A stretch of DNA of 64,000 bases from Mytilus edulis (lineage: Eukaryota). Positions 12,040 through 55,583 of the stretch are shown here, piece by piece; position 1 is the first letter of the stretch; each line of letters starts with the position of its first letter. Location: the NCBI RefSeq assembly GCF_963676685.1, contig NC_092357.1:13764001-13828000 (forward strand), written 5' to 3'. Below the pieces are notes generated by a model that searched no databases, had not been told where the DNA came from, and saw nothing but the letters and a program-made list of their open reading frames with translations. The translations under genes and the position numbers were made by a program.

Positions 12040-14576
12040 ATGGGTATGTACAAAACTGTTCATTGACTTAATCTTTAACAAGTAATATGTTAGCCGGAAA
12101 TGCCAATTAAATATACGAAATATAACACACACACTTTTATCTCTAATATCAGTCATTGAAAAAAATGTAAAAATGCTCGTAATCTTCATTTTTTTGCATA
12201 CGGTTTCAAGCCGTATAATTTTAACTCTACATTGTTTCTTTCCAGTTTTTACTTATGTTTCAGTGTTACTGGTATCTGGTTTACTAAGCTTGCTTGTTCT
12301 CAATATGATTGATCTTTCCGAGGCTTCCATCAAGAAGGGTGTAGGAATAATGTTCAGCAAACAATACCGGTGTACAGACGAATTTACCTTTAATAACGTT
12401 CACTGGTGGTAAGCTAACAAGTAATTGAACAGTGTCACTTGATCACATAGAGGCCAATGATTATGATTGATCTTTCTGAGGCTTCCATCAAGAAGGGTGT
12501 AGGAATAATGTTCAGCAAACAATACTGGTGTACAGACGAATCTACCTTTAATAACGTTCACTGGTGGTAAGCTAACAAGTAATTGAACAGTGTCACTTGA
12601 TCACATAGAGGCCAATGAAATCTTATTTTTCTTCTCAGACGACACCTTATTTGTTTACCTGTGCGACATGTACATCACAAGTTATTTCCTTTTTTACAGA
12701 TTTTGACATACTTAACTTTACTACGAAATTGGATGATAATGTCACGTGGTGCTATCATGCTGCTCATATTCAGGTTAAAGGACGGTGTATGTTATATCTT
12801 TAAAAATAATATATAACGCTTTGGTTTCCTCTGATAAAAAAAATTTAAAATAAAGTCTTTGAATATGATTCGTTTCAGTAATTTTTCCAATCTTGAATTA
12901 TAAAACACTTTGTTCACAATAGATCTCTTGGGAATGCTGATTTTTTTTATTCTTATACTAGTCTTGTTACTTGTACAAACATGCTATTCATTATTATGAC
13001 ATTTCTAGAATACCAATGATTTTGTAATGTGATTTGCACGATATTTTTTAAAATAACTTGTTACAGTTTCCGTTAATTTTTCTTATCCTAAAAAAATATT
13101 CATTTTATGTTCGTTTTATTTTTGCGGTGTTCTGTGATATTAGGGAAAATTTGTAAAACACGTAATATATATTGATAATATCGATTCATCTGGGATGATC
13201 TTTGCGATATCATTTCTTGAACAAGGACAAAGATAGTGGGTTCTCAAATCTAAACATGCTAAATATTGGCATTTTTTTTTAAATTTTCTACTTTGAACTC
13301 CTTGTTCACTCTTTTTAATTTGCATTGGTGTCCCATTATACTCATCTTTTGTTTTGCGCAAGTTACCGCCCTATTATGTTCCACTCTTAATTTTCCAAAG
13401 GATTCGTATGTATTTTTCATTTTTGGCATAGTTTTCTTTATCTTGTGTATCTCATCAAGACTAAAAAAACTGATTTTTCCTAACCTGTCAATTAATATCT
13501 TACAACAATGTAGTTAGATGATAGAGTACAATTGCCAATGAAACATTTTATACAACCATACCTAATGAAATAAAAATAGGCATCTCGAGTTCATCTTATC
13601 ACTTTTAACAATGATCAAAACAAACACCACACTGTAAGCTATAAACGTTGGCTATTTCAGGTATTGAGAAATAGAGAATCACTGGAATAACTTAAAGAAG
13701 ACAAAGACCTACATATGTAACCATAGGCATTTTAACAATGAGTAAAATCTCATAATATAATGTCTATAACCTGCATTGATTTGACAAAATGAATAACAAT
13801 TTATATATAAAAGCTAAATACCTGAAGTATGTATAAAACAATAAACAAAAAAACGAAAAACAGATATAATAAAAGCGTGGTTTAAGATATGTACACATAG
13901 TGTTCTCTATGTTTAAATTTTCCCTTTTGTTATTGCTTTAAGGTATGACTGGCATCAAACACCCAATTTGATGCACGGATATAATCACTGTCCGACAACC
14001 GTTAGATCAGGATATGTACCGATGGTCAACGGCAAACAGTTTGAAAGAGGAATCAATATTTCTGTCAACTCGCAATTTCTTCTTGGGTTTAATGAACCCG
14101 ATCACAAAGTACAGGCAAATCTTACCGCAGCTCAAGCTTCCGTTATGTGGAAAGAAGTAGAAAAACATGCTGCAGGAAAGACATTGGTAAGTCCGGCAGT
14201 TACAGATATCAACTGGTTGCAACAATTTTTTCAGCATTGTAACAATTGCAGAGTGGACCATGTGGCAGTACATATCTATAAATGCAATGCACACCAAATC
14301 ATGGCATACCTTAAGCAAACATGGGATAGATTCCACAAACCAATATGGCTGACTGAATTTGCCTGCCCTCATACTACATCAGCTAATGAACAGCTTCGAT
14401 TGATGAGAAAGCTACTTCCGCTATTGGAGTCTGCACCGTATGTGTTTCGATACGCATGGTTTACTAGTAGATGGGTCTTCCATAGTCATACATTTGTAGA
14501 TGGTTCAACAAGTTTGATGAAAGAAAACTCAGCAGAATTGTCAACACTTGGACATTATTATAATAACTTTATGTAA
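12040..14576 (+). CDS. Secreted GH128-family (Asl1-like) putative beta-1,3-glucanase, copy 1, 260 aa; exons 12040-12043, 12264-12408, 13943-14576
   Basis: GT-AG introns (phase 1 and phase 2) give MVLLVSGLLSLLVLNMIDLSEASIKKGVG...HWWYDW...GFNEPD...DHVAVH...KPIWLTEF...RYAWF; hydrophobic N-terminus; both catalytic Glu present; AATAAA at 14586. Confidence 0.9.
12304..12618 (+). repeat. Tandem duplication (2 x ~158 bp) of the 3' part of exon 2 plus the intron-2 donor of copy 1
   Basis: 12304-12460 is repeated at 12462-12618 with a few substitutions, including a second TGGTG|GTAAG donor. Confidence 0.92.
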
Positions 14577-17873: not shown

Positions 17874-18160
17874 TCTGTTGTTTCAAAATATTTAGTTCTG
17901 GAAGATATATAAATGAAAACCAACCAGAAAAGTTCCGATTGTTAATGGAAGGATAAATATAATTATTACTATATCTCGATGTGAAATTAAAAGATCTGGT
18001 TGATCAACTATTCATCGTCTTAAAATTATGTTTGATCTGTACATGGTTCAACATAACTTATTTGATCGAAACAGCCTCCCACTCTACAATTTTAGATGAA
18101 GATATTGAAAAATGAAATTTCAATATATAAACATTTGATGTTTATTCAAAATAGATATAA

Positions 18161-19578
18161 TTGATACATATTCCTGTATATGTATGTCTATACTTAGCAT
18201 ATATTTGATACATATTCCTGTATATGTATGTCTATACTATGCATATATTTGATACATATTCCTGTATATGTATGTCTATACTAAGCATATATTTGATACA
18301 TATTCCTGTATATGTATGTCTATACTAAGCATATATTTGATACATATTCCTGTATATGTATGTCTATACTTAGCATATATTTGATACATTTTTCTGTATA
18401 TGTATGTCTATACTTAGCATATATTTGATACATATTCCTGTATATGTATGTCTATACTTAGCATATATTTGATACATTTTTCTGTATATGTATGTCTATA
18501 CTTAGCATATATTTGATACATATTCCTGTATATGTATGTCTATACTAAGCATATATTTGATACATATTCCTGTATATGTATGTCTATACTTAGCATATAT
18601 TTGATACATATTCCTGTATATGTATGTCTATACTTAGCATATATTTGATACATTTTTCTGTATATGTATGTCTATACTTAGCATATATTTGATACATATT
18701 CCTGTATATGTATGTCTATACTTAGCATATATTTGATACATTTTTCTGTATATGTATGTCTATACTTAGCATATATTTGATACATTTTTCTGTATATGTA
18801 TGTCTATACTTAGCATATATTTGATACATATTCCTGTATATGTATGTCTATACTTAGCATATATTTGATACATATTCCTGTATATGTATGTCTATACTTA
18901 GCATATATTTGATACATATTTCTGTATATATATGTCTATACTATGCATATATTTGATGCATTTTTCTGTATATGTATGTCTATACTTAGCATATATTTGA
19001 TACATTTTTCTGTATATGTATGTCTATACTTAGCATATATTTGATACATTTTTCTGTATATGTATGTCTATACTTAGCATATATTTGATACATATTCCTG
19101 TATATGTATGTCTATACTTAGCATATATTTGATACATATTCCTGTATATGTATGTCTATACTTAGCATATATTTGATACATTTTTCTGTATATGTATGTC
19201 TATACTTAGCATATATTTGATACATTTTTCTGTATATGTATGTCTATACTTAGCATATATTTGATACATATTCCTGTATATGTATGTCTATACTTAGCAT
19301 ATATTTGATACATATTCCTGTATATGTATGTCTATACTTAGCATATATTTGATACATATTCCTGTATATGTATGTCTATACTTAGCATATATTTGATACA
19401 TATTTCTGTATATATATGTCTATACTATGCATATATTTGATGCATTTTTCTGTATATGTATGTCTATACTTAGCATATATTTGATACATTTTTCTGTATA
19501 TGTATGTCTATACTATGCATATATTTGATACATATTTCTGTATACGAATGTCTATACTAAGCATATATTTGATACATA
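18161..19578. repeat. Minisatellite, 32 x 44 bp (TTGATACATATTCCTGTATATGTATGTCTATACTTAGCATATAT)
   Basis: Exact 44-bp period from 18161 to 19569; two main variants (ATATTCCTG / ATTTTTCTG); no unique spacers. Confidence 0.97.
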
Positions 19579-20135: not shown

Positions 20136-23100
20136 ATGGGTATGTACAACACTTTTGTTTTCTTTGTTTCAGAAATTGATTTATTAGATTAGATTGCCAA
20201 TTCAATGAAATACAAAGTTCATTAACATTAATTTTTTTATTCAAAAAAAAGAGTAGAAAATGTGTTTTTCGTAGATATTTGATTTTCACGATTTTGCAAT
20301 AGGTTTGATACAGGCAAAAAGGAAATATTTAATTGGTTGAACGATTGTTGTAATTCCTGGTTGACATGAAACAGTAATGAATCAACAGTGTACGAAGTAT
20401 AAATAGTTCTTAAATGACAATTGATTTTTTTTATTTAGTAAGGAGGTTATTTTATGTCAGCTTCAAACTTTTAAAACTTAGTTTTTGGTGGGGTTCGTAT
20501 TGCTTATTCTTTAGTTTTCTATGTTGTGTCATGTGCACTACACTTTCTCTATTTGTCTTTTCATTTTTTAGCCATAGCGTTGTCAGTTTATTTTCAATTT
20601 ATGAGTTTGACTGTCCCTCTGATATCTTTCGTCCCTCTTTTAGTGGACTGTAAAAATGAATCAACAGTGCTCGAAGTATAAAAGGTTCTTAAATGAAAAT
20701 TTTATTTGTTGCGTTTAAACCACGTTGTAACCTTCTTAACCGTCATAAGATTATTATAACGAGCACAAGTCACAATAAGGATTTTTTATTAACAAAGGAG
20801 GTTATTTTATTTCTTGCATTTAAACCACATTGTAACCGTCTTTACATTCATAAGAATATTATAACGAGCACAAGTCACAATTTGTAAAAGTAAACCAAAA
20901 TACGGTTTCCATCACACGCCCTTGGCTCACAACAAACAGCAAGTTACAAAGTGCCCCAAACATGACTAGATTAAAACAATTAAAACAGAAAAAACACTGT
21001 CTAATCTTTATAAAAAACGACAAAGACTTATGAATCACATCAACAAACAAACAACAACCACTAAACATCAGGTTCCTGACTTAGTACAGATGTTCAGGTG
21101 CAAACACATGAAGAATGTCAAATATTTTAATACGTCCTTACCTTCACCCTTATCTGAAATAATAGTGTAACATTACAGCATGGAAACCATGCTATAAGAT
21201 ATCAATTGAAATGGATTTACTCAATGAAAAGACAAATTAACACAAATACTGAACGAATACATATGATCTATGACATAATGTAAATACAAAATAAATAGAA
21301 TAAGAGGTAAAACAATAACAGATGGACAATCATAACCTTGGACAGATTGCCGACAAATAAAGTTTAGTTCAGATAGCTTCAAACAATTTGTTTCTAATAT
21401 TTCAGTGTTGGTCGTATCTAGTACTTTATGCCTGATTGCACTCAATATCATCGATCTTACTGATGCATCTAACAAGAAGGGTGTGGGAATAGTGAGAAGC
21501 AAGAATTACCGGTGTTCAGATGAATCCACATTCAACAACGTTCATTGGTGGTAAGTATACACTGGACAGTATTATAAGTTCACATGTTTTATCTAGTCTG
21601 TAGTAGGATTAAGAACCATCACATTCTTTTACCATGTTTAAACTTCAGTACCGACAATCGATACTTAATAATACAGGTAACAAAGATCAAAATCTGCTGA
21701 TCACCATTGTAAATTCTGCTGTACTGCATGGTCAACCAAAACGAAAGACAAAATTCTGCATTAATAACCATAAACACACATAATATCATATCTGACGTAA
21801 TAGTAGGTGGTAATGTTGTTTGTACAGGTAAAAAAAGTGACGACGGAACAGTCAAACTCATCAATCGAAAATAAACTGACAACGCCATGGCTAAAAATGA
21901 AAAGGACTAACAGACAAACAATAGTACACATGACACAACATAGAAAACTAAAGAATAAACAACACGAACCCCACCAAAAACTAGTGTGATCTCAGGTGCT
22001 CCGGAAGGGTAAGCAGCTGATGCTTTACATGTGGCACCCGTCGTGTCGCTTATGAGATAACACATCCGGTAAATAGTCTAATTCGATCGATCACATCTAT
22101 GAAAGAGATCAGAGGATTGTAGGTACGAAGTTAGGCACATATACGATATCATTTGTGAAACGGTTATTCCATAACGGTCAACCAACTCGTGATGGCGTCC
22201 GTAAAATTTACGAAGAGATGATTTCGTCTTCACCATTTGGAACTCTTGATTTAATAGCTTATTTGTAAGAAACAACTCTCCTTCAAGAAAATCATGATAG
22301 AAAATGCAAGCACGGAAATATCGTATCAATTGGGAGATATACACCGTATGCAGGTGCTGCTGGAATGTTGCTACTTAGAAATGGAAAGTTCACAATTGGA
22401 AAGCTGAAATCATCTCTTTTGTCGTAAAGTTTTGTTTTCAATCGACCCTCATTGTCAATTTCTAGATGTAAGTCAACATATGTGTCTGTTGTATCCTTTA
22501 TCTCTAGTCCAATGGGATAGTTGCGTTCGACATAGTCACCAAATTTTGAAATATCTAGTTAAAGAACATCATCTATATAGCGGAAAGTAGAGTTAAAGGA
22601 TATTGCTCACCTCTTATCTTTCTTCCTAAGAAGTTCCTGTATGAAGTCAGCCTTATAATAATAAAGAAACAAGTCGGCAAGAAAAGGGGCACAATTTGTT
22701 CCCATTGGAATGCCGATAGTCTGTTGAAAAACACGTCCTCCGAACGTAACAAATATTTGGTCAATCAAGAAATCAAGCATCTTGATAATGTTAGTTTCAG
22801 AGAATTTTGTGTTTGAATCAGAGTGATCCTTTACAAAGTAGGATGTATCCCTTCCTAAAAGAGGGACGAAAGATACCAAAGGGACAGTAAAACAAGATAC
22901 TACGTAATTATACAGTCTACAACATACAATACAGGTATTGTTTAAAAACATTGTACCATCATAAAGCATGCAGATTAAAACTAATATTAAAATATACCAA
23001 CTTTGACTAGATGGAAGCCAAAGCAAGACGAACATTTTCTGATATAGTCCAATTGGCGACCATTTTTTTATCAGGTCTGCGGTGTGCTGTTATTTTGGAT

Positions 23101-23920
23101 ACTTGATACAAAGTGCAGACAACAGCTAAAGGCCATCAGTTTGTCTCCAAGACAGCGAGAAATTCCCGCAAAAGTTTTTTTCAAGTTTAATATTTGGGTT
23201 CCTAATATCTAAGTTTAGGTTCCTTTATCTTTTTTAGGCTCTTTTATCTATTTTTAGGTTTCTTTATCTATTTGTAGGTACGACTGGCAACAGTCACCCG
23301 ATCGTATGCATCTTCGCCACCACTGTCCGTTAAATGTTAGATCTGGTTATGTACCGATGGTAAACGGCAAAAACTTTGAAAGAGGAATACATGTTTCTAA
23401 CGATTCACATTATCTTCTTGGGTTTAATGAGCCTGATCATCATGAGCAGTCAAATCTAACAGTAGCACAAGCTACCGTCATGTGGAAAGAATTGGAAAAG
23501 CATGCCGCAGGGAAAACATTGGTTAGTCCTGCAGTTACCAATCTCAACTGGTTACAGCAATTTTTACAACATTGTCACAATTGCAGAGTTGACCACGTGG
23601 CAGTACATATTTATAGATGCGATGCGCACCAAATCATGGCATTTCTTAAGCAAGCATGGGATAGATTCCATAAACCAATATGGCTGACCGAATTCTCCTG
23701 TCCACATACTACATCAGAAAATGATCAGCTTCGAATGATGAGAGAGATTCTGCCTCTTTTGGAGTCTGCGCCGTATGTTTTTCGTTACGCATGGTTTGCT
23801 AGTAGATGGTTAAAACATGCAAGTGATGGCGCTTGGGTAGATATATCAGCAACTCTGATTAAGGAAAATACTTCAGAACTTTCAGCACTTGGACATTATT
23901 ATAATAACTTTATGCATTAA
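20136..23920 (+). CDS. GH128-family putative beta-1,3-glucanase, copy 2, 263 aa; exons 20136-20139, 21406-21550, 23278-23920
   Basis: Same exon phases and 145-nt exon 2 (MVLVVSSTLCLIALNIIDLTDASNKKGVG...); NEPD and WLTEF intact; ATTAAA overlaps the stop. Confidence 0.9.
20480..20641 (+). mobile_element. Solo 3' tail of the Penelope-like family in intron 1 of copy 2
   Basis: Matches the tail at 10767-10930; other solo tails at ~8600-8667, 24425-24630 (-), 47785-47862, 54995-55165, 56320-56390 and 61633-61850 (-). Confidence 0.75.
21831..22890 (-). mobile_element. Penelope-like retroelement RT fragment, antisense in intron 2 of copy 2
   Basis: FGGRVFQQTIGIPMGTNCAPFLADLFLY (ORF 22607-23035) and YISQLIRY (22078-22344); frameshifted; preceded by a short extra copy of the family 3' tail at 22857-22890. 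Confidence 0.88.
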
Positions 23921-29621: not shown

Positions 29622-32600
29622 ATGGGTATGTACAAATCGTTTTTTTGGTATTTGTACCTGATATTAATATGGTATTTGAAACTGTCAATTAAATTCTTTG
29701 TATCTAATTTTTTCGCTGATATTAATTTTCTTTTAATTTAAAAAAAAATGATATTTTCGTAAATATTTGATTATATGCTATTGCCATAGCTTTTATGCAG
29801 ACCAAACCAAACTTGCACTTAATATCACGCAAATAACAACGAATCAACAGTTTATGAGGTACACAAAACACCAAGTTGTAATCTATTTATCTATGAAATA
29901 AAATAAAGAGATTGTTGTTGTCATATGTTTGAACAAGTATTAAAAGCTCATTTCACCATTATAACCATTTTAAGAGTGTAATAATGGCAATGTGGAAACG
30001 GGTTAAAATAAGTTGAAATAATTGTTCCCCAATCCACTATTAATGAATATGTTTTAAACTAAACTAGTTATAACCAAACATTTGAAGCAAAGTTAATAAA
30101 GATTCTAATGTTTCAGTGTTGTTGTTATCTGGATTGTTATGTGTACTTTTACTCAACATCACTGACCTTACTGGTGCATCTCGCAAGACGGGTGTTGGAA
30201 TAGTGAGAAGCAAACATTATGAGTGTTCAGATGAAGGCAATTTTAATAACGTTCATTGGTGGTGAGTATACAGGTTACTTAGCATAATCACGTGTCCCCA
30301 CACCTACCCCGCCCCTCACCTGCATGGAAGTGTGCGGCATGGTGTTTTTTTTTGTTTTTTTTTTTAGTATAGCAAAGTTTAAGAATACTTTAGATTCATT
30401 TATTTTCGTGGGTACCCATTTTCGTAGACTTCTGAGAACCTGCATATTCATGGATATTTGATTTCGTGTTTTTCCAAATGTCTGTATACAAATAAAATTG
30501 AGAATAGAAATGGGGAATGTGTCAAAGAGACAACAACCCGACCAAGTAAAAAACAAAAAACAACAGCAGAGGGTCACCAACAGGTCTTCAATGTAGCGAG
30601 AAATTTCCGCACCCGGAGGCGTCCTTCAGCTGGCCCCTAAACAAATATATACTAGTCCAGTGATAATGAACGCCATGCTAATTTCCAAATTGTACACAAG
30701 AAACTAAAATTAAAATAATACAAGACTAACAAAGGCCAGAGGCTCCTGACTTGGGACAGGCGCAAAATGCCGCGGGGTTAAACATGTTTGTGAGATCTAA
30801 ACCCTCCCCTATACCTCTAACCAATGTAGAAAAGTAAACGCATAACAATACGCACATGAGAATTCAGTTCAAGAGAAGTCCGAGTCTGATGTCAGAAGAT
30901 GTAACCAAAGAAAATAAACAAAATGACAATAATACATAAATAACAACAGACTACTAGCAGTTAACTGACATGCCAGCTCCAGACTTCAATTAAACTGACT
31001 GAAAGATTATGATTTCATCATATGAACATCAGGCACAATCCTTCCCGTTAGGGATTTAGTATCATACCATCATAACATATATGAGAAGAACATAACCCGT
31101 GTCATGCCAACAACTGTTTTTAGAATAAATGTGTTTAGTTCCGATGCAAAGACCTTATAAGTGACTCAATATTAACGCCAAAATATGCAATCTTTAATGA
31201 CTTGACAACAGTATCGTAATTATATCCCTTCTTAATAAGTCTATTCAAAGGTTTTGTAAGTTTCTGAGGTGAATACTGACACCTTTGTGCTTTATAAAGA
31301 ATATTTCCATAAAAATTGGATGTGAAATACCTGAACGTGTTAGAAGTCTGCATGTTGAGCTATATTTACGAATGATGTCTTTATACCGATGATAAAATTT
31401 AGTAAATGTTTTGACTAGTTTGTGATATCGAAAACCCTGGTGTAATAATCAGTAATACATAAATTTCTCTCGTTAAAATCTAAAACATTGTTACATACAC
31501 GAGCGAATCGTACAAGTTGAGATATATAAACACCGTAAGATGGTGACAAGGGAACGTCACCATCTAAAAACGGATAATTAACGATAGGAAATGAAAAATC
31601 ATCCTTTTTATCATAAATTTTAGTATTCAGCTTTCCATTAGTGATATAGATATGAAGATCGAGAAAAGGACAGTGGTCATTGTTAGTATTAGCTTTATTT
31701 AAAGTAAGTTCAACAGGATACATTTCATTAATATACATACTGAAGTCGTCATGATTGAGAGCCAAAATATCATCCAAATATCTAAAAGTATTATTAAATT
31801 TGTTTATCAGATGTTGTTTCGATGTGTCTTTGCTTATTTTTGTAATAAATTGTAACTCATAACAATACAAAAACAGGTCCGCAATAATTGGTGCACAGTT
31901 AGTCCCCATTGGAATTCCGATAATCTGACGATATACGGAATCCCCAAAGCGAACAAAAATCTTATCTAGTAAAAATTCAAGGGCATATATAGTATCAAAG
32001 CATGTCCAATTAACATAGTTTTTTTGTTTATTGCTACTAAAAAATGACCTAAAAGAGTTTGAACATATATATTCACATTCTGATTTTTGAAAATATGTTA
32101 TTCGTGGTTAATAATGGATAATAAGGAATCCACAATAGATGTAAACCAACAAGTGTTTGAATGTCCATAGCAAACACCTATCCTCTTATTTAGAATGGAT
32201 AGTCGAGGATATGATACTGTGTTTCTCACTCATATAGTAAAGGAATATTATAATGTTATGATACACTGCTGGTATTATATTTAAATATTGTACCTTCATC
32301 CAGCATACTTATAAGCATCCATGTTTCTGCTAGACAATATATACACACAAGGACCAATATGAATGATAGGCAGAAGGAATATCTGATGATAAAGTATATT
32401 TGACTACCATTATTTTTCCCGATCAGATCTGCTGTAATTTTGAGAACTATTCATTTTTTAATTGTATTATTTCAGGTCTGCTGTAATTTTGAGAACTATT
32501 CACTTTTTAATTGTATTATATTGCTTTACATCACTGTACGTAGCAATATATTTGATTTGTTATTCATGCAATTTTGAAATTATTACTTTGCAAACCTCGT

Positions 32601-34029
32601 TTAAATTGGTTGCCTTATAAAAGAGTTTATGTTCTTATGTTAAGAATGTCATATAGAATTTAGAATAAATCATGGAAAGAAGGAGATATTAAATACAAAA
32701 GACAGAAAGTCAACTTCAGTTTGGTTCTTGAAGATCAAATGAATAATAAATGCGTAATATTGATAAAATTTTTGAAAGAACTATGTACTTTTTTTTCAAA
32801 GAAAGTGTCAACTCATTATCGTTTAACTTCATTATGAAACGGAGTTTTTAACATATCACATCCAGCACATATACTCGTATAAACCATGGTGGTTATTAAA
32901 TATAAACATGAGTCTCATCTCATGTTTAATGTTCTGAGTGACATCATTTTGTTGATGAGGATCTGGTTGGGTTGGTGTGTGTCCCTTACCTCTGTGCAGT
33001 TTTTTTGATCATTTATTTTGTCGATCATTACTCCATCTTATATTATATTTTAGCATCTCTTTATACTCTTCTCTTTTCTCTATTTGCGTATTATTCTTCC
33101 TTCTTTTAACCAAGATTTTAAGAAATAAAAGTGTTCAGACCACATGAACAAGTCACTAACATTTCTCTCACTGTGGATTCATTTATTTTCAATATATAAA
33201 TATCAATTTTCATGGATTGACTATTCGTAGATATTTAACTTCGGATTTTAGCAAAGTAGGCATACATTCCTTTAGAAAATTTACACTTCGTTAAATATTT
33301 AAATTCGTCATGCACTTGTACCCATAAAACCCACGAAAATACCCAACAAATGTGAATGAATTTATCGATTTCTTTACTGTTTTCAGGTATGACTGGCAGC
33401 AATCACCTGATCACATGCACTCTCATCATCACTGTCCGGCAGACGTTAGAGCCGGATATGTACCGATGGTAAACGGCAAACATTTCGACAGAGGAATCAA
33501 TATTTCTGCAAATGCACATTATCTTCTAGGTTTTAATGACCCTGACCGTCGTGATCAGGCAAATCTATCAGCATCACAGGCTGCAGTCATGTGGAAGGAA
33601 TTGGAAGCAAATGCCGTAGGAAAGATCTTAGTTAGTCCTGCAGTTAGTAGTCTCGACTGGTTACAACAGTTTATGCAGCAATGTCATAATTGCAGAGTTG
33701 ACCACGTGGCTGTCCATGTCTTTAATTGCAATGCACACGAAATAATGAGAATACTTAAGCAAGCATGGGATAGGTTTGAAAAACCAATCTGGCTTACAGA
33801 ATTCGCTTGTCCCCATACTACATCAGCAAATGATCAACTTCGGTTAATGAGAGAGATTCTGCCACTGCTGGAGTCTGCGCCATATGTATATCGTTACGCA
33901 TGGTTTGCTAGTAGATGGATGAAACATTTAGATGGTGGTAATACGGTAGATATTTCAGCAACCCTGATAAAGGAAAACACGGTAGAACTCTCAGCGCTTG
34001 GACATTATTACAATAACTTTATGCATTAA
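29622..34029 (+). CDS. GH128-family protein, copy 3, 263 aa, with acid/base Glu changed to Asp (GFNDPD); exons 29622-29625, 30117-30261, 33387-34029
   Basis: Intact spliced ORF (MVLLLSGLLCVLLLNITDLTGASRKTGVG...); codon GAC at 33538-33540 where copies 1, 2, 4, 5, 6 and 8 have GAA/GAG; nucleophile WLTEF retained. Confidence 0.88.
30490..32090 (-). mobile_element. Second-family Penelope-like retroelement, 5'-truncated, antisense in intron 2 of copy 3
   Basis: ORF 31415-31909 MGTNCAPIIADLFLYCYE...FRYLDD...FLDLHI...YDKKDDFSF...YGVYISQLVRF; the ~640-bp 3' region has partial copies near 3560-3760, 27540-28010, 42845-43100 and 57880-58200. Confidence 0.88.
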
Positions 34030-36965: not shown

Positions 36966-37981
36966 CAGAGAAATCCGCGGGAACAGAAATAAACAAATGC
37001 ACGTGTGTAGATTGACAAATGTAAAATGTAAAAATGCAATCGAAAATAAATTGCTAAAGTTCCAAAACATCCAGTTGTAAAAGACAACAAGAAAATGAAA
37101 ATGATTTGACATCAAAAATTGAAGAAAAAAAATCAGCAGTAGAATCTTACTCTCATTGGATAATTGTAATAGGGTTCTTGGACAGAATAAACCATGTCTG
37201 AACCAGAAAGTAGATTTATAAAAATGGTGTGGATTTAAAGTTTGGTATTGAAAATTTAAAGAAGTGTAAGAATCAAACAGATTGCTGGGATGGTGTAAGA
37301 AATTATCAGACCAGGAACTTCAAGGGGGGTCAGATGAAGATAGGACATCAGGTGTTTTTCTATCACAGTAATTGTAAAGAGCCTGGAATAGCTGGAATTT
37401 GCAAGGTAGTGAAAGAAAGTTGTGTAGATTACACACAGTCTGCCTCTTAAGATCCTCATTATGATCAAAGTGCAAAGAAAGATGCTCCAAAGTGGTACAT
37501 GGTGGATGTAAAGTTTGAGAGGATGCTGAAAAAATTTATACCATTATCAAAACTTAAAAATCACTACATCTTAATCACAAGGCTGATGGTGGGACACTGA
37601 AAAATATGGCTTTATTCACAAAGGCAAGGTTGTCTGTACAACCTGTTACTCAAGAGGAATGGGATTTCGTATTAAACTTGGAGAATGAGAAGACATAAAG
37701 ATAATTTGATCAATGTTATGAATATCAGATGGATCAATTCGATAAAATGCACAGTTGGATATATATATGAGTAAAACATGAAGTGATGAATTTTTGTTTT
37801 ACAGGATGTACATATAGAACTGAAATATGTCTCATGTAAGAAACAAAATTACAAGACCTGAGAAGTTTAACATATATGGAATACAAATCTCATTGTGTGT
37901 AATTGTTAATCAAAATTGTCTGTAAAAATCATCAGTCATAACAGATTTCTATGTAAATAAAAATTAAATATTAAAAAAAAA
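36966..37981 (+). pseudogene. THYN1: Processed pseudogene of thymocyte nuclear protein 1 (EVE domain)
   Basis: Intronless SHW...SEPESRF...DLKFGIENLK...CWDGVRNYQTRNF...FFYHSNCKEPGIAG...DPHYD...PKWYMVDVKF...LKNMALFTKARLSVQPVTQEEWDFVL; stop at 37448-37450 and frameshifts; AATAAA 37956-37961, A-tract 37973-37981; candidate TSD AAGTATA at 36959-36965 and 37980-37986. Confidence 0.9.
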
Positions 37982-39734: not shown

Positions 39735-42346
39735 ATGGGTATGTACGTTACATTCGATGCTCTATTATCAGAAGTTGATATATTTTATAAAAATATCTAT
39801 CATTCAATTTGGTAAAAACACATCCTCAACAACAGTGAAAATCTATACACAGAAAAATCATCAACATATTACATTTTACCAATGAATCAAAAACAGGTTT
39901 TTTTTAATTTGTACTAGCAAATAATTCTACTATACTCCTGAACTCATAACGTGATAATTGTCTAAAGAATGCGATCTCCTTTAGTAATGCATATCAGAAT
40001 ATCAGTTAAAAAATAATCTGTGGACCAACATTTTCAATATGTTGTATTAATAAACGTACAAATTCAGTCTAGTGAAAGTTCATAGAATGTGTTCTTATTC
40101 TTGCCCGATTTTTTTTTCTTTTTCCCGAACTGTTGGTTATTTTAAGTAAATCAACGTGTGGTTCGTGTGATCTTAGTTGTTCGATTGTGATATTCATTTA
40201 ATGGCGTCAAAAGTTCTTGCTTTTCTCTGAAATTCCCTTTGTTACGTCATTTAAAGGCATCCATGTCTGAGAATGTCACATAGAACGAACTGATCATAAT
40301 GAGATCATTCGTAAAGAAGTACTGAATTTGTTTGCATATTGTCTAAAAATCTTTAAAGTAACAGATTTAATCACCAGATCTCATGCAATACGATATTCAT
40401 TTACTCTCGAAATATACATTTTTATAATTAAAACGATTGGCGAGCGTCGCTTTTGATGCTATATAAATTTGAAAATGTATTTCTCTCGAGTGGATAAATA
40501 TCGTAACACACTTGCTGCAGTGCAATACAGTGAAAGAATCTGTATACTAAGGGACACTGTAAGGTCACATATTCCAGAAGCATTCTTTGTTTGATTGTCA
40601 ACATTAAACAGGTTGATTTTTTGGGTTTTTTTTTATATTCTACTATATTCTAGTATTTCCTTAACTAAATACTTGGTGCAGACAAACCTGTATATTTTTC
40701 ATAGATGGAGCGACGTTATCTTCAAAGTCATACGTAAACGACGTAAATATTGTCAACTGCATCAATGCAAACAAGACGAAAAAGTCGCAATTACGTTCAA
40801 TACATTTTAAAGATTATTCCGCCTTAGCCTAAGTATAATCCCATTCACGCTCTATACTTTCGTATTTTACTTGGTTTACCAACGGATTTAATTGTGGTTC
40901 CTTCCCATATTAAACTAACCTTATTTAACACACTTTACAAATAACAATAAACACCTGAAGAAAATGGATCATATGATTAAAACACGTTTTAAACACGCTG
41001 TAACTTATGTTTCAGTGTTGGTGGTATCTGGTACTGTATGTGTACTTGTACTAAACATCATCACACTTTCCAGTGCTTCTAATAAGAAAGGAGTTGGGAT
41101 ATCATGGAACCCACAGTATCACTGTACGGATGAAGCCACCTTAAATAACGTTCATTGGTGGTAAGTAAAAAGATAACTCACCGGGATCACGTTTTCACAC
41201 ACAAGTTATATGGGTGAGTGTAGAACGCCATGTTCCCTTGTGCTGTTCATATCCTACTATCGACTATGGTTACTGATTAAACTGGAAAGAAGATCAAAAT
41301 CGAGAAATTCAAGGCAAATTAAAGTAATTGAAACCACAGACAAAATTCAGCTGCTACACCTTTCTCCTGCTAATGATTATATAATAAGCATCATCTGACG
41401 TACCGTTAGCTGGTATTAGGGTGGGATGTTCTTCATCTGCAGATTAATTGACATTATATCAAGAAACATAACCAATACTGTATGAAAATATCGAATTCTT
41501 GGCTGAAATGAAAGCTCAATTGCACACAATTATCTTTTGTTTAAAGTTAGTTGAATTTTCATGCTAGAAATTATATACCGAGTGGAAAAAATAAACTGGA
41601 CAACACGTATGTGTGAACATGGAATACATTGACGACAATAATGTATGTGACCTGGTAACACCAAAACCGGGCTATACAGTTAATTGTAGAATTATGTTTT
41701 TAATTTCAGGTACGACTGGAGACAATCACCCGACCAAATGCACTTACAACATCACTGTCCAACAACCGTTAGAGCAGGATATGTACCGATGGTGAATGGA
41801 ATGCATTTTGAAAGAGGAATTAATATTTCTGGTAACTCGCAATATCTTCTTGGGTTTAATGAGCCGGACCACAAAAAACATGCCAATCTAACTGTAGCAC
41901 AAGCTGTCGTCATGTGGAAGGAATTAGAGAAGCATGCCATAGGAAAAACCTTGGTTGGCCCTGCAGTAACAAATCTGAACTGGTTACAACAATTTATACT
42001 GCAATGTCACCAATGTAGAATTGACCACGTGGCTGTCCATATATATAAGTGCAATACACATCAAATAATGGCTAGACTTAAGCATCTATGGGATATGTTC
42101 CACAAACCCATATGGCTAACTGAATTCGCTTGTCCACAAACTACATCAGTTAATGAACAGCTTCGGTTGATGAGAGAGCTTCTTCCACTTTTGGAGTCTG
42201 CACCGTATGTTTTTCGATACGCTTGGTTTGTTAGTAGAAGGTTACACCATAATGATGGTTCCTGGGTTGATGGTTCAGCGAGTCTGATGAAGGAAAATTC
42301 AGCAGAACTGTCAGCACTTGGACATTATTACAACAATTTTATGTAA
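39735..42346 (+). CDS. GH128-family putative beta-1,3-glucanase, copy 4, 261 aa; exons 39735-39738, 41016-41160, 41710-42346
   Basis: Intact spliced ORF (MVLVVSGTVCVLVLNIITLSSASNKKGVGISWNPQYHC...); NEPD and WLTEF intact. Confidence 0.9.
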
Positions 42347-44711: not shown

Positions 44712-47405
44712 ATGATGGGTATGTACAAAACGTTCGTCGATGTATAAATATCGAAATGATAATTAAAATGAAAAACAAAACTGTAGATTTATCTATATTT
44801 GTTGTCAGAAGGTTTTCTATAAATTACATTTTCGTTAATAGTTGATTCAATGCTTCTATCATAGTTTTTAAATTTCCAAATCATAATTTGCTTTTCGTTG
44901 AACGTTTTTTATATTCTAAGGTGACCTTCCACCACAAAATACACTCCAAGTTCTAACTCATATATTAGTAAAAGTCAATTAAAAAAAGCTAATAGTATTG
45001 TCATATGTTGAGGGAAATTATTATATAATCAATAGCATCACAACGCTGAAATATAAACCAACAATTTTGGACAAAGTTGTATCGTGTAAATTCAATTTTG
45101 TTTTCCGTCTGTTTAAGTGTTGGCAGTGGCTGGTTCTTTCTGTTTACTTTTACTCAGCATTTTGGACCGTTCCTGGGCTTCTCAAAAGAAAGGTGCTGCA
45201 ATATCATGGAACCCAACATACCACTGTACAGATGAAGCCACGTTTACTAACGTTCATTGGTGGTAAGTAGACTAGCTCCAAAATATCATGGAACCTATTG
45301 TATCACTGTACAGGTGAGGCACTTGTACTAACGTTCATTGATGGTAAGTAGACTAGCTCCAAAATATCATGCAACCTATTGTATCACTGTACAGGTGAAG
45401 CACTTGTACTAACGTTCATTGATGGTAAGTAGACTAGCTGCAAAATATCATGCAACCTATTGTATCACTGTACAGATGACGCCACCTTTACTAACGGTCG
45501 TTGGTGGTAAGTAAACTATCGTACCATTGTACAGCCGAAGCCACCCCTACATATGTACGTTGATGGTAAGTATACTAGCTCCACAATATCATGGAACCCA
45601 TCGTACCATTGAACAGATGAAACCACCTCTACTTTTGCACGTTGGTGGTAAGTATACTAGCTCCACAATACCACGTGTTCACTAGTCCTCACCTATAAGA
45701 CCATAGAGTTCTTTTATAAATAAATGTTTGCATCATATTTCCACCTACCTACATGCAGATACACCAAGTTACGAAATATACACGTTGGTAAAATTCATTG
45801 ATGTAAATGACTATCGGAACAGAAGGCACATGTCTGCTGTACGCAAATATTTGTATTGGCAGTCGCAAACACAGATCACATTGTAAACGCCGTAATAACA
45901 AACGTTTATAGGATACAATGATGCTGTACATAAGTGTTTAAATGTCAGTTGCAAACCCACATCAAATTGTAACAAAGAATGACACGCACTGCCTTATAAA
46001 AGTACTAGTCTCGATAAAGTCTGTAGCTCATTTTTTTCATAGACATGGACCATTCACATGATATGAATAATATTCTTTTGTTTTTCAACAATGATTCGCA
46101 TGCTTGAAAAACAAAATATCTGCTCTAATAGAGCTTATTGATTACAAAATAACACGATATATTTAGTTGGTTTTTCTTTTAATCGATGATCCAAGCCTTT
46201 CGATTCTTGTTCATTTCCCACCTCTGATCTTATAATGTGTATGAAATTATTAACATGTATTTTATTGTATTCGATTATTGATTATTTGCATGAAATCGAT
46301 AAGACTTTGTTAGTTGAAACACTTGCGTTTGGTCCATTATCTTAAGTTCAGACAATAAATATGTGCAATTGTATAATAATTTGTAAAGGTATTACCGGAC
46401 GATATAAGTCATCATACACTACTTGTACTGTTTAGAAAGATCGGAATGCCATCTAGCGCGCACTCATCTGTCTGCTGATACAATGAAAATGACGACTAGT
46501 TCTAGTGGTTTGGGTTTGTTTTACTTATTTTATTTGCATTTGGTTTCATATGCAATGCAGCCAATTGCGAGCCAAACAAAATAAAACTATACGGCATAAA
46601 AAGCATCAATTTATTCTTTATTCTTTATATTTTTGCAAACAAAACTAGCTTTTTTGACGATTTTTTTACTCTTCTGTCATTCTATTCTCTATTCATCTAT
46701 ACCCTGATAAACAGAAAAATTCCAAATCAGCCAATTTAACTCTCATTTGTTTTCTCTTTTTTCAGGTATACCTGGAAACACTCACCTGATCGAATGCATC
46801 TTCAACATCACTGTCCGACAGCTAACGTAAGAGCAGGGTTTGTACCGATGATAAACCCTAAAAATTTCAATAGAGACATCAATATATCTTCCAATGCAAA
46901 ATATCTTCTTGGTTTTAATGAGCCTGACCACAAAGGAGGGTCAAATCTTACAGTAGCACAAGCTGTCGGAATGTGGAAAGAAGTAGAGAAAAAGGCTGCA
47001 GGGAAAATCTTAGTTAGTCCTGCAGTTACAAATCTTCACTGGTTGCAACAATTTTTACATCAATGTCATAATTGCAGAGTTGACCACGTGGCAGTCCATG
47101 CTTATAGGTGCGATGCACATCAACTTATGGCATACCTTAAGGATGCATGGAATAGATTCCACAAACCAATATGGCTGACCGAGTTTGCCTGTCCTCATAC
47201 GACATCAGTTAATGAACAGCTTCGATTTATGAAAGATGCTCTGCCGCTTTTGGAGGCGGCACCGTATGTGTTTCGATACTCATGGTTTACTAGCAGATTT
47301 ATACACCACAACGAAGGTACTTGGGTCGATGCGTCAGCAAGTCTGATGAAGGAAAACTCTGCAGAACTATCAGTACTTGGACATTATTACAACAACTTTA
47401 TATAA
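44712..47405 (+). CDS. GH128-family putative beta-1,3-glucanase, copy 5, 263 aa; exons 44712-44718, 45118-45262, 46766-47405
   Basis: MMVLAVAGSFCLLLLSILDRSWASQKKGAAISWNPTYHC...HWWYTW...GFNEPD...WLTEF...RYSWF; AATAAA overlaps the stop. Confidence 0.88.
45200..45672 (+). repeat. Six tandem ~81-bp units of the exon-2 3' end plus splice donor (copy 5)
   Basis: AATATCATG starts at 45200, 45282, 45363, 45444 and 45585, plus one truncated unit; each ends TG|GTAAGT. Confidence 0.92.
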
Positions 47406-49759: not shown

Positions 49760-52700
49760 ATTTCAGGTTGACGTCGTGCATGTATGATGTCTGGCCATGT
49801 TCTAACTTTTCACCAATTCACCGATAAGTTGATTCACAGTACAAATAATTAAATCTAGATCACTGCTTATCGGTATTTTCAAGGTGTATTGGTACTTTCT
49901 TGGTGTAGTACTTAGATATGATCCATAAAAATAACAAAACAATACTGTCAATGTGTCTATTTTCGTTGTTATAAGGTTTTCTTGAATTTAAAGAAATTAT
50001 ATTTTTGTTAGTATTTGATTCAATTTTTTTTTTATCATAGTTGTTAAATTCTAAATGATAATTTGATTTTCGTTAAACGTTTTTCATATTCGTAAATAAC
50101 CTTTAACCACAACATAGATCCCACGTTCTAACTCATATATCAGTAATAGTGAAATAAAAAAACTCATATTGTTGTCATATGTTGCAGAAATTTTTGAAAA
50201 TATTATATACAATCAAAAGCATAAAAACGTTGAAGTAGAAATCAACAATTTTAGACAAAGTTGTATCGTGTTAATTCAACCGTAATTTTTTTTGGTCATC
50301 TTTTGAAGTGTTGGTGTTGTCTGGTGCTTTGTGTTTACTTCTATTCAATATCATCGACCTTTCCGGGGCTTCTCACAAGAAAAGGGCGGCAATATTATGG
50401 AACCCAACATACTATTGTACAGATGAAGCCATTTTACCAACGTTCATTGGTGGTAAGTAAATAAGCTCCACAATATCATGGAACCGATCGTACCACTATA
50501 CAGATGAAGCCACATTTGATAAAGTTCGTTGGTGGTGAGTAAACTAGCTGAACAATATCATGGAACCCAACGTACCACTGTACAGATGAAGCCATCTTTA
50601 CTTACGTTCATTGGTGGTAAGTAAAATAGCTCCATAATATGACTGAACCCAACGTAACATTGTACAGATGCAGCCACCTTTACTGACGCTAGTTAATGGT
50701 GAGTAACCTAGTTCCACAGTATCATGGAACCTATCGTACTACTGTACAGATGAAGAGACCTTTACTAACGCTAGTTAATGGCGAGTAAACTAGACACCAA
50801 CGAACGTTAGTAAAAGTAGCTTCATCTGTACAATGGTACGTATATGATGTATTCAATGGTACTAGTTCCACAGCACCATGGAACCAATCGTACTACTATA
50901 CAGATGAAGCTACCTTTACAAACGCTAGTTAAAGGTGATTATACTCGTTCCAAAGTACCATTGAATACATCATATACGTACCATTGTACAGATGAAGCTA
51001 CTTTTACTAACATTCGTTGGTGGTTAGAAAACTAGCTCCACAATGTCACGTTTTTACTAGTCTTCACATGCAGGATTTGTTACACGTTACGCACGATAAT
51101 GGGTTCGGATTAAACTACGATATTATGATTTAATAACAGTAACCATTCGCCTATACAAAATAAATCCACCAACATGCATATATCTACAGAAAGGCCTTGA
51201 CATGTCTTTCTTATTTTAAGTTAATTCTTTAAATTTTTGCACCATATGTATAGTTCATTGATCACACAAACCTTACTTTTACGTTTATAATTGCATGACT
51301 GGCGAAACATTTCAGATTACATAAAATACATTTTCCAAAGCACCGTAGTAATTTTGAACATAAAATCTGCAAAATTTGGTTCACCAACTTCCTACTAGAT
51401 TTATATTCTAACGTCATAGCCGTTTGTTTTTAGCGTTTGATAAATTTTTAACTAAGTCCTCTATGAAGAATTCAGCAGAGGAACCTGTCTGTATGTGTTA
51501 TGCGGAAACTTAATCGGATTTCGAATTTTATAATTTTCACTATGATATTATCAAATCATATTAAAACTATATTCAATAGAAAGTTCTGAAAACTATAAGC
51601 ATTCAAAGTTTCAAATATAAAAAAAAACTTATTCATGAAGAATAATTTAGATAAATAGCATGTCTAGCCGCTATGTCCAAACGTTAATGTGTTCCATTCC
51701 TTTGGTGAAGTCTGTAATAGAAATAGAAAATGTCCCCTTATAATATAAAATTAAGCTACTTCAAAGATGCAAACTATAAGTTCCTACAAATCGGTTGATG
51801 AGTCGGGTGTTTTCATCAACAGCATGACCTTACAGTTTGTTTTTTTTTCGGAAAGCATTTCTTGTGTCTAGCCATTATGTTCAAGGGCGTCATTTAGACT
51901 TTTCTTCACAGTGGCGTCATTTATATGAATACACACTTTTCGTCTAAGCAGTTAAAATAAATCCTTCAAATGTTCATTCCAAAAAGGTCTGCTGAATCAA
52001 AATAACACTCAGATGAAGAAAAAAACACACACATAAGGAATAGACCCTTTATAGACACAGTAAAAGCGGATGGGCTAGGGATAATTACTTATGGACAAAA
52101 GTTTTCACGCAAATCACGCACCTTTATAGATTAGAATCCGAGGTACAATGGACTTATATTTCAAATATGTACAAAAGTGTACAAATACCTTTTGTAAAAT
52201 AAAATCACCACCGCTAAAAAATAATAATATAACAAGCATTTCAAATAGTCTGAAAATCTCGCACAGATACATGCACATGCAGATATTAAACAAAAGTGAA
52301 TTCAATCTAAAAATAATAATTTCTACTAAAATTGTTATATAACATAACATGCCAAAATTATTATTTTATCGATTTATATGAAATAAATACAATAACTGTT
52401 TATTTTAAATTTGTCAAAAATATATTACTGGCTTGTTTCTCTCTTCTCGTGTGAACCTCTGGCAGCACGATTTTTTTTAAAGTTTGCTATGCATTCTTTC
52501 CAAAATAGATTGGAAAATGTGCTTTTATTTTCAATTCATCACAGATCAGAAACTAAGAACGACCCTTACGAAAAAAAATTTATTAATTGCCTTATAAATA
52601 ACAAATTTTGAAATTTCTATTCTATTCATCTTATGATATTTATTTTATAAAAATCGATCGAGTAAGTACTCAGCAATATATATTTTTGTTGAAACAGCGC

Positions 52701-54576
52701 AAATCTTTTTTGATAAGAAAATGTCGAAGTATATGGCGTCAAAATTGTCAATTATACATGTTACGTTTTGAGACGCAATACCGTGCGTAACGTCTTAGAG
52801 CATAGCATTATTTTATAAATGGATATTCGCATCATATAGCATTTAGCTTCATGCAGATACAGCTAGTAATAAAGATGAATAACAAACGCAAGGAACAACG
52901 ATAAATGACAAAAGTTTTAAAACATGATAACACAATACCATAATTCACTATTTTCACTAAATGTCTTTCACTAAAATAATAATTTGAGAAAATGGCTATT
53001 ACTAACGATAGTTCATGAACTGGCACACTGCTATATAATTCTTCTCGTTAAACTGCTATAAGCAGCAACATAGTGAGCAATGTCATGAATGTGTATGTGG
53101 CACAACTTAAGAAAACTGTCAATGTCGATGTTATCTGTTTTTTTATGATTTTGCATGATGATGCTCAATTTTTTCAAAGACATAGATAATCCTCATGATA
53201 AAAGGAAAATTCTATTGTTTTTCAACAAAGATTTCCATGCATTGAAATCAAAATAGCTGCTTTTAGCCAGTGTGTATTAACAACAAAAAATATGGTCCAA
53301 TCTGGTTTTAGAAATAGATGTTCGAAATCGTTTCGATTCATGTTAATTTCCTCCTCCTACATTGATAATGTGTATGAAATAATGCAAATGAATTTTATTG
53401 TGTTCGGTTATATATTATTTGTAAAAAATCGAAATAACTTTATAAGTTGAAAAAATTGCGTCTGATTATCATTAATTCGGAAAATATATAATAATAATTT
53501 ATAAAGGTTTAGACAGATCGGATCGCCATCTAGCGTGCACTCAACTGCATATTTGTCTATTGTTTTCAATGAGATTAGCTAAAAGACCGGACAACATGAA
53601 TAAACACTGATGAAATGAAATTAACGACCACTTTGAGTTTCAGTTTTTTTTTTGTTTTTTTTTCTATTTTATAAGTTTTTTTGTCACTTATTGTCCTTAT
53701 GCTCCGGAGCCTGTTGAGTACCACACAAAATTATGCCGAATAAAAAGCACAAATTTATTATCCTTTTTCTTTAAATTTTGAACGAAAGGACTATCTTTCT
53801 ATTTTTCCCGAATGTTATCTACTCTTTTTTCATTCTCTATTTTGTAAACTTCACTTATACCCTTCTAAATAGAAATTTCTAAAGCAGTCAATTAGTCTTC
53901 AAATTTATTTTTTATCTATTGTTATTTTTTCCAGGTATAATTGGAAACATTCGCCTTATCGAATGCACCTTCAACATCACTGTCCAACGGCTAACGTAAG
54001 AGCTGGGTTTGTACCGATGATAAACCCTAAAATTTTTAATAGAGACTTGAATATATCAACAAAGGCACAATATCTTCTAGGGTTTAATGAGCCTGACCAC
54101 CATGATCAGTCAAATCTAACAGTAACACAAGTTGTTGGTATGTTGAAGGAAGTAGAGAAAAAGCTGCTGGGAAAATCTTAGTTAGTCCTGCAGTTACCAA
54201 TCTTAACTGGTTGCAACAGTTTTTACATCAATGTCACAATTGCAGAAATGATCACGTGACAGTCCATGCTTATAGATGCGATGCACATCTACTCATGTCA
54301 TACCTTAAGGACGCATGGAATAGATTCCACAAACCAATCTGGCTGACCGAATTTGCCTGTCCTCATACTACATCAGTTAATGAACAGCTTCGGTTTATGA
54401 AAGATGCTCTGCCGCTTTTGGAGGCTGCGCAATACGTATTTCGATACTCATGGTTTACAAGTAGATATTTACACCACAATGAAGGTACTTGGGTAGATGG
54501 TTCAGCAAGTCTGATGAAGGAACACTCTGCAGAACTGTCATCTCTTGGACATTATTACAACAATTTTATGCAATAA
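49760..54576 (+). pseudogene. GH128 copy 6, pseudogene (closest to copy 5); exon 2 at 50309-50452, exon 3 at 53935-54576
   Basis: Promoter block retained but the ATGG|gtatgt start/donor is deleted near 49915; exon 2 is 144 nt (1-nt deletion near 50432); 1-nt deletion near 54163 splits exon 3 into ORFs 53963-54181 and 54211-54576. Confidence 0.88.
50391..51045 (+). repeat. Tandem array of ~80-bp exon-2/donor units in copy 6, including one inverted unit
   Basis: Repeated TGTACAGATGAAGCC...TGGTGGTRAGT; 50795-50863 is the reverse complement of 50954-51022. Confidence 0.9.
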
Positions 54577-55583
54577 AGAGGTCGTATTATTATACCTGTG
54601 TTACTCATGTGAAGATTAATATATTTCCTGATATCTATGGCGAGTTTATGTCCTGATCACTTTAAATCATTTAGGTATTATGGATGGTATATCATGAAAC
54701 TTAAATGTGTCAGGTATTTTGAATATAGGCTTTTCTTTATTATCTATTATCCATTGTAAACGTGGTAAAATTGTTCGTTTTACCATTTTTGTTGTTTTCA
54801 CAAGTTATCTTCGGATTCTTCAGATTAGCATCACTTCGTTATTTATCAGTTTAATGTTTTTCCTAAAACAGATCGTCAAATTTTCGTGTTTATAGATTTT
54901 ACTGTATTCATTAAATGTCTTACATAATATTCTATATGTAGGAGTTTTATCATTGGTAAAGGCCATGTATAAACAAATTATTCTCTATAACATGACGGAT
55001 GTCAAGTGTAAAGCAGGATCTGCTTACCTTTCCGGAGCACCGTAGATCACCACCAATTGTTTTAAGGCTAGTGGTGCTCAGTCTTAATTTTCTAATATTA
55101 TATTTTGTGTAGTGTTTGTGTATTCTCTTGTCGTTTTAATCTTTTAACATGGCATTTGTCAGTTGTTTGTTGTCGGCTTAAATACCTTACACCAACAATA
55201 AAACAAGCTTGTTGACCAACTGGTTGAATGTTCATTATTTTCAGAGCTATATCAGTAATGACATAAATTTTAAAAAGATCTTATCTCAAAATATAACTTG
55301 AACACACAAAAACAACTGTTTTGATGCCGATAGGGAAAACGCCTACTTTTTAAACCTGTTACCTGTTATCAATGTCCGGCGACACGGAAGCGTAGGACAG
55401 CACCTCAAACATATATCAAAATAATGTTTACTCTTGTATAACATGTAGGGGATGACGTTTCTTTATTAATTTGGTGAGTACGTTTTAAATCTCAATTCTT
55501 TATGTTGCGTTCACTATCTTTAAAACCAATAACTACCGAAAGTAATCGGAAAGAAGCATTGTAAAAATGAGTAAAATTTAAAA

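Follow-up and report, generated by a model that had tools for sequence, protein, structure and literature searches.

In the retaining mechanism of these glycosidases, the glutamate of the NEP motif first donates a proton to the leaving group and then activates a water molecule, and replacement of this acid/base glutamate with aspartate usually costs a large rate factor on natural substrates; no paper on the size of the effect was found in the literature search. Glycosidase folds are known to be reused after catalytic-residue change, as in the GH16-derived beta-glucan recognition proteins and the GH18 chitinase-like lectins, where the substitutions are usually non-conservative or recognition resides in a separate domain. 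The beta-GRP/GNBP/LGBP proteins among them are defined by a GH16-like domain, which an N-terminal glucan-binding domain may accompany. Among the structures of family GH128, two groups are most relevant to the gene described here: the subgroup II endo-beta-1,3-glucanases (ScGH128_II, 6uax; CBM6E, 8j3x and 8j3y; PvGH128_II, 6uav) and the fungal subgroup VII proteins (TgGH128_VII, 6ubd; CnGH128_VII, 6ubc), which are titled oligosaccharide-binding proteins in the PDB. According to the available text on CBM6E, E168 and E272 are its catalytic residues and Y247 its nucleophile-activating element, with contacts from N167, H245 and F310 at subsite -1 and from W117 and Q174 at subsite -2, and with W141 as the platform of subsites -4 to -2 (PMC10956234). 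The equivalent Tyr-to-Phe change in the GH1 enzyme HoBGLA is described, in the accessible part of the report, as lowering kcat approximately 45-53-fold with approximately 2% kept, as severely compromising hydrolysis in two other GH1 enzymes, and as shifting the transfer products of the variant, the change being reported to favour transglycosylation (PMC4803828). A further parallel comes from the digestive GH28 pseudoenzymes of beetles, which the available portion of their description presents as inactive paralogues in an expanded, secreted, polysaccharide-degrading animal family, kept by selection beside active copies (PMC6549527).

The window, a stretch of 64,000 nucleotides of the Mytilus edulis genome, carries PF11790 (GH128) genes arranged in tandem, all on the + strand, and their last exons begin at 13944, 23279, 33388, 41711, 46767, 53936 (frameshifted) and 59732. 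A search of the same genome led from 21 candidates to 16 matches, among them four further open exon-3 frames on another contig, all four carrying NEP and H-x-Y. Public records call these proteins 'uncharacterized' or 'Asl1-like'. The gene of interest is the third of the array, copy 3, the features of which are listed here together with its sister paralogue, copy 2:

29622 to 29625, + strand: copy 3 coding exon 1 (ATG and one further base, ATG-G), with a GT donor after it; spliced joint in run X1.
30117 to 30261, + strand: copy 3 exon 2, with a hydrophobic leader (predicted signal peptide), the K-[K/T]-G strand and the first cysteine; covered in runs X1, X13 and X2.
30188 to 30190, + strand: Thr26 (KTG), codon ACG, a private or rare allele, Lys in other records.
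33387 to 34029, + strand: copy 3 exon 3, the GH128 catalytic barrel, ending in TAA; PF11790 E 6e-45, spliced joint in runs X4, X1 and X2.
33538 to 33540, + strand: Asp101, codon GAC, at the acid/base position (CBM6E E168, AmGH128_I E102).
33547 to 33555, + strand: Arg104-Arg105-Asp106 (RRD), with Arg104 in place of the +1-subsite residue (CBM6E F171; His in the other array copies).
33715 to 33723, + strand: His160-Val-Phe162, with Phe in place of the nucleophile-activating Tyr (CBM6E Y247).
33799 to 33801, + strand: Glu188, codon GAA, the retained nucleophile in WLTEF (AmGH128_I E199, CBM6E E272).
21404 to 23920, + strand: copy 2 (exons 2-3), with NEP, HIY and TEF intact.

Copy 3 consists of three exons separated by GT..AG introns, with a CDS of 792 nt that encodes 263 aa and six mature cysteines at positions 38, 66, 149, 152, 164 and 191; its exon 3 is 77% identical to that of copy 2. 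The intact reading frame, splice sites, six cysteines and TEF motif described in an earlier sequence-only reading of this DNA were all recovered, as was the central claim of a change from NEP to NDP in an otherwise intact three-exon gene. That reading had also named a signal peptide: the N-terminus is indeed a hydrophobic leader, and the peptide itself stays predicted. Record P0122, labelled Mytilus edulis, matches this product without a difference; it is unlikely to be independent of the window sequence. Reverse-transcriptase-like fragments, presumably retroelement remnants judging from their motifs, are found at 31418-32107, 22610-23089 and 11057-11392, all on the - strand; one of them sits in copy 3 intron 2, which also holds a very abundant repeat. 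A THYN1/EVE-domain fragment with a stop codon is located at 37241-37552, and the public gene model P0002 joins it to copy 3 and gives copy 3 the wrong name 'Thymocyte nuclear protein 1'.

The ten copy-3 orthologue proteins compared, drawn as members of the ten closest clusters, comprise two each from M. edulis, M. galloprovincialis and M. trossulus, one from M. coruscus and three Logan records. The motif around residue 101 in copy 3 reads LLGFN-D-PDRRDQAN, and all six other window copies with the motif read NEP, with codon GAA or GAG. Outside copy 3, position 101 is Glu in 280 of 293 domains, Lys in one and a gap in 12 (Glu in 280/281 residue-bearing), these domains deriving from 294 fetched proteins that are best-listed matches and include many related Mytilus alleles. 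In a set of 145 representative domains, taken from the 137 newly fetched proteins among the best 150 of 7449 passing 50%-identity representatives, the position is Glu in 140, Lys in two, Arg in one, Gln in one and a gap in one, with Asp in 0/144 residue-bearing domains. Longer and shorter homologue searches revealed no further Asp-type protein beyond the copy 3 orthologues. Copy 3 is therefore without the acid/base glutamate (N-E-P) of a canonical GH128 beta-1,3-glucanase, since Asp101 occupies the position in 10/10 orthologues, and it retains the nucleophile, the glutamate of W-x-T-E, with Glu188 present in all ten. The residues N100, H160, E188, F223, W53 and Q107 are likewise kept in 10/10.

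A second catalytic change, Y162F, was absent from the earlier reading. The H-x-Y motif, which aligns with H245-C-Y247 of CBM6E, is HVF or HIF in all ten orthologues. Among the 293 domains outside copy 3, position 162 is Tyr in 289 and a gap in four, making it Tyr in 289/289 residue-bearing domains; the 145 representatives have Tyr in 140, Phe in four (all four with both Glu) and Arg in one. Copy 3 does not have the usual nucleophile-activating tyrosine, carrying Phe162 in 10/10, although this feature is not universal, as HWH stands at the same site in BgGH128_III, whose PDB title calls it an exo-glucanase. As a second change at a catalytic position, Y162F makes it more probable that hydrolysis is lost or greatly lowered. 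Outside the array, 45 columns are conserved at 90% or more, and the window protein deviates from these at three alone, through W79N, E101D and Y162F, the latter two being specific to this copy and W79N being common to 8/8 array proteins checked; the coruscus-type copy 3 has A116S in addition. Each of the six other array proteins checked deviates at one or two further conserved columns, never at 101, 160, 162 or 188, and two of the six change Gln107.

The two accessory differences named by the sequence-only reading, RRD after the NDP motif and KTG in exon 2, carry less weight. NDPDRRD is present and fixed in 10/10 orthologues, but its columns are loosely conserved, making it weak as catalytic evidence: position 104 takes F, H, L, R and others, and so Arg104 says little about catalysis. 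The clam protein P0016 reads NEPDRED and the active AmGH128_I reads NEPDL. KTG occurs in the window and did not prove to be a fixed feature of copy 3, since six of the seven orthologue proteins covering site 26 have KKG (Thr in 1/7) and the RNA or RNA-like runs covering the codon have AAG in 3/3. Site 26 is Lys or Arg in 225/225 other domains and Thr in 2/119 representatives. As a co-evolved inactivating change, KTG was rejected on account of its status as a private or rare allele.

The same residues bear on whether copy 3 is still an enzyme, acting through Asp101, perhaps via a water molecule, and Glu188 as a slow hydrolase, as a beta-1,3-glucan transglycosylase or on a substrate that is bulkier or leaves more readily. 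No variation is seen in 10/10 orthologues at the nucleophile or at any -1 residue, Asp101 has stayed Asp with no drift to a neutral residue, HxF and HxH exist in proteins with both Glu intact, and the fixed R104, R105, S137 and T236 reshape the likely acceptor side. However, transfer too requires the acid/base, for leaving-group departure and acceptor activation in the established retaining mechanism, Asp at site 101 is absent from all 144 residue-bearing representatives, and two stacked impairing changes would likely leave very little turnover. Tyr-to-Phe is among the changes that favour transglycosylation in GH1, in the accessible text of PMC4803828, and mollusc GH16 endo-1,3-glucanases are noted for transglycosylation in the available part of PMC7551256. 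The conservative nature of both changes, the fixed nucleophile, the histidine of BgGH128_III, the HxF cases and this bias towards transglycosylation together make a slow or transferring enzyme a serious, though less probable, alternative identity for copy 3.

A tree of 44 domains took in five of the named copy-3 orthologues, and these form one clade (100/100) with copy 2 as its sister (100/96); each of the seven named, assembly-derived record sets examined contains copy 3. D101 and F162 occur together in all ten orthologue proteins. At least half of the exon-3 words were found in 20 runs from 13 studies, and the sequence was examined in four of these 20 (two recorded as RNA and two guessed to be RNA), a thin sample of polymorphism. 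This run evidence takes the form of contigs, which indicate presence and not level or tissue, and the depth of which cannot rank genes. Three of the four runs contain the joint of exons 2 and 3 and one contains that of exons 1 and 2, each across a GT..AG intron. In each run, the contig over codon 101 differs from the window at two to three other letters (sites 33456, 33477 and 33669), all of them synonymous, so that Asp101 is unchanged in 4/4 runs; F162 is unchanged for certain in three, the fourth having one unlocated difference in that contig. The sequence-only reading had named a rare allele, an assembly error and lack of expression as outcomes that would undo its proposal. Instead, the aspartate is fixed in all ten orthologues, which come from four named species and three further records, and is unchanged in the four runs, and the spliced contigs in three of the four runs show the gene to be spliced and transcribed. 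A 987-base contig encodes the full three-exon copy 3 with a mature part identical to the M. coruscus record (0/241 differences), which suggests that copy 3 is transcribed in the source of that contig as well. One run with exon-3 words is labelled invertebrate gut RNA, and four runs of the same study have next to no exon-3 words; this hints at restricted expression and is counted as no evidence. The matches listed included no protein from M. californianus, Perna or any other named mytilid, and the switch is therefore not datable beyond the four species; the text of PMC8063583 gave no date for the divergence of M. edulis and M. coruscus. A metagenome scan for mussel DNA orthologues returned 16 loci, all 27-44% identical and none a mussel gene.

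Selection on the gene was estimated with a GY94 codon model (F3x4) fitted to exons 2-3 of the six intact window copies. Omega on the copy-3 branch is 0.245, compared with 0.203 elsewhere (p=0.51), and is below 1 at p=4e-7 with a dS of 0.39, values that derive from one haplotype, ignore gene conversion and apply to a branch mixing time before and after the switch; a second topology left the outcome unchanged. The relaxed selection that would have spoken against a retained function was thus not what the branch displayed, the constraint on it being purifying. Compared with M. coruscus, the exon-3 protein of copy 3 is 93.0% identical and those of four canonical copies are 93.4, 94.8, 93.4 and 95.3% identical, with a doubtful copy-1 pair at 86.7%. 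Protein stem lengths are 0.18 for copy 3, 0.034 for copy 2, 0.065 for copy 4 and 0.11 for the copy 5/6 group, and past its long stem copy 3 has ordinary branch lengths, a pattern consistent with rapid change at first and constraint thereafter. Copy 3 is in this respect like described pseudoenzymes, an intact and expressed gene under purifying selection. The notion of a dying duplicate, or of an aspartate created by assembly, draws on the loss of other copies in the array (frameshifted at 53.9 kb, pseudogene at 55.6 kb) and on the K26T change of the window haplotype at a site that is otherwise so constant. Fixation of Asp in four species, the omega value, the spliced contigs and the ordinary divergence from M. 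coruscus largely refute it and leave it highly improbable.

By sequence and fold, copy 3 belongs to GH128 with two canonical catalytic features missing. It scores 154 bits against the PF11790 profile (cut-off 21; E 6e-45), and its AlphaFold2 model, built from a 51-sequence alignment, has a pLDDT of 91.5 and a pTM of 0.87. The top 21 structures matched by the model are all GH128 (Z 23.1-27.5), ahead of the next family at 18.7, with 6uax best (Z 27.5, rmsd 2.5, 227 aligned) and 6ub7, 8j3x, 8j3y and 6ub8 tied within 1. Subgroup II provides both the best sequence match (E 2e-29) and the top or tied fold match (Z 27.5), and shares with copy 3 the nucleophile and the equivalents of N100, H160, F223, W53 and Q107. 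Copy 3 differs from subgroup II in its acid/base Glu-to-Asp and activating Tyr-to-Phe changes, in the array-wide Asn at the W141 equivalent, in its lack of a CBM, and in its nature as an animal gene that has introns and for which a signal peptide is predicted. The fold is common to subgroup VII, whose binding function is the one proposed for copy 3; these fungal structures (6ubc, Z 23.7; 6ubd, Z 23.1) rank last among the GH128 matches to the animal model, which argues against membership. Copy 3 is probably not a subgroup VII protein because it is nested among canonical mussel paralogues, and that position in the Mytilus clade would make any loss of activity independent of subgroup VII. Copy 3 also resembles a pseudoenzyme in that its catalytic residues are substituted, conservatively in both cases, and its predicted fold and its pocket residues are kept.

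The same architecture bears on a possible immune role of copy 3, in which it would recognise beta-glucan of fungi or algae as a pattern-recognition lectin comparable to the GH16-derived recognition proteins. The altered catalytic residues, the kept sugar pocket, the hydrophobic leader and purifying selection are all consistent with such a lectin, and oligosaccharide-binding GH128 proteins exist in subgroup VII, going by the PDB titles of 6ubc and 6ubd. Copy 3 shares with the GH16- and GH18-derived lectins a catalytic-residue change and differs from them in fold. It does not belong to the beta-GRP/GNBP/LGBP proteins, having PF11790 alone and no GH16-like domain; no domain external to PF11790 was found in exon 3, and beyond the leader the 263-aa model forms one barrel. 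Insect recognition proteins have a separate N-terminal glucan-binding domain, whereas copy 3 has just one domain and is devoid of CBM, transmembrane and signalling parts, and the whole array is without the Trp lining subsites -4 to -2. Mussel immune lectin families are often highly variable, whereas copy 3 is near-invariant within species and present in all seven record sets; one of the runs with copy 3 RNA is, moreover, the gut-labelled one. An immune lectin is accordingly an unlikely reading of copy 3.

With E101D and Y162F occurring together, the pocket intact and the gene conserved, the best reading is that copy 3 is a maintained paralogue and a likely secreted pseudoenzyme that binds beta-1,3-glucan without efficiently cutting it, which is judged slightly better than an even prospect. 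The sequence, its fixation, the splicing, the purifying selection and the modelled fold are results of the analysis, and the loss of hydrolysis, the binding, the secretion and the role are predictions. The shorter Asp101 would likely not reach the glycosidic oxygen, leaving the leaving group unprotonated, and Phe162 would be unable to tune the nucleophile Glu188, while the kept Asn100, His160, Glu188, Phe223, Trp53 and Gln107 may still hold glucose in subsites -1 and -2. Copy 3 could then work beside approximately six canonical paralogues as a glucan-binding accessory or scavenger, the handling of food (laminarin-type glucan) perhaps being likelier than a signalling receptor; the role is the least secure part of the proposal. 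Against a pseudoenzyme stand the conservative nature of both changes, the carboxylate that Asp still provides and the fixed nucleophile, as if some chemistry remains. Since the array is without the CBM6E W141-type Trp and copy 3 has Arg104 in place of the +1 stacking residue, its binding may be weak; and since no Mytilus GH128 was found characterised, the baseline activity of the canonical copies is putative too. A digestive accessory, or a slow or transglycosylating enzyme, fits just as well as pattern recognition does. The possible digestive-accessory role is modelled on the beetle GH28 pseudoenzymes, which differ from copy 3 in family, fold, mechanism and substrate, and for which, in the available text, inactivity and role were tested, whereas both are deduced for copy 3 (PMC6549527).

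Pseudoenzymes in expanded glycosidase families are known already, and no earlier description of a disarmed molluscan GH128 was found. The literature searched, with subscription papers outside its scope, held no description of any molluscan GH128, active or disarmed, and no animal GH128 appeared in the title or abstract start of the papers listed for GH128; the available portion of a mollusc paper names GH128 once, in a family list (PMC7551256), and PMC13591233 and PMC10282164 contributed nothing further. More tentatively, copy 3 may represent a dedicated mussel beta-1,3-glucan lectin or a natural transglycosylase, created through Glu-to-Asp and Tyr-to-Phe and fixed before the split of M. edulis and M. 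coruscus. If true, this would be an animal-specific route of glucan sensing or remodelling that owes nothing to the GH16 receptors or to fungal subgroup VII. Copies 3 and 2 offer a natural matched pair for studying a shortened acid/base and a lost nucleophile Tyr in clan GH-A, with bearing on filter-feeder digestion or sensing of beta-glucan from algae and fungi and on the engineering of glycosidases into lectins or transglycosylases.

The remainder of the array shows variation of its own. Asn replaces the usual GH128 Trp (PMVW to PMVN or PMIN; CBM6E W141; window codon 33472-33474) in 8/8 array proteins, and PMVW is retained by the four intact paralogues of contig C4; the negative-subsite cleft may be shorter throughout the array. 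The -2 subsite residue Gln107 is His in copy 4 (41879-41881) and Gly in copy 5 (46938-46940), with the catalytic residues all kept, which suggests differences in specificity across the array. The 53.9 kb copy (53936-54573) has a one-base frameshift near 54160, and its close relatives are open in M. trossulus and M. galloprovincialis (P0010, P0172 and P0173); the 55.6 kb copy (55583-56061) is a pseudogene with stops. In the M. trossulus record P0175, the annotation joins a copy-8-like GH128 to a C-type lectin domain, and no match to a lectin exon of this type was found in the window or its 10 kb flanks; the fusion may be a gene-model artefact or lineage-specific. Canonical GH128 proteins are labelled from clams, abalone, limpet, periwinkle, brachiopod and annelid (P0016-P0033, P0058 and P0075), and myxobacterial proteins are among the next matches. 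Tandem duplications of the exon 2 end lie at 12302-12618, 45283-45654 and 50430-51027: copy 1 has a single one, and the copies at 46.8 kb and 53.9 kb have many in their introns, in steps of approximately 80 bases, one of them inverted. A tandem array with a 44-base period lies upstream of copy 2 at 18155-19578. Far from the array, at approximately 31.48 Mb (L023:1883-3990, on G000:C14), a decayed GH128 copy has an internal segment of exon 3 repeated approximately ten times.
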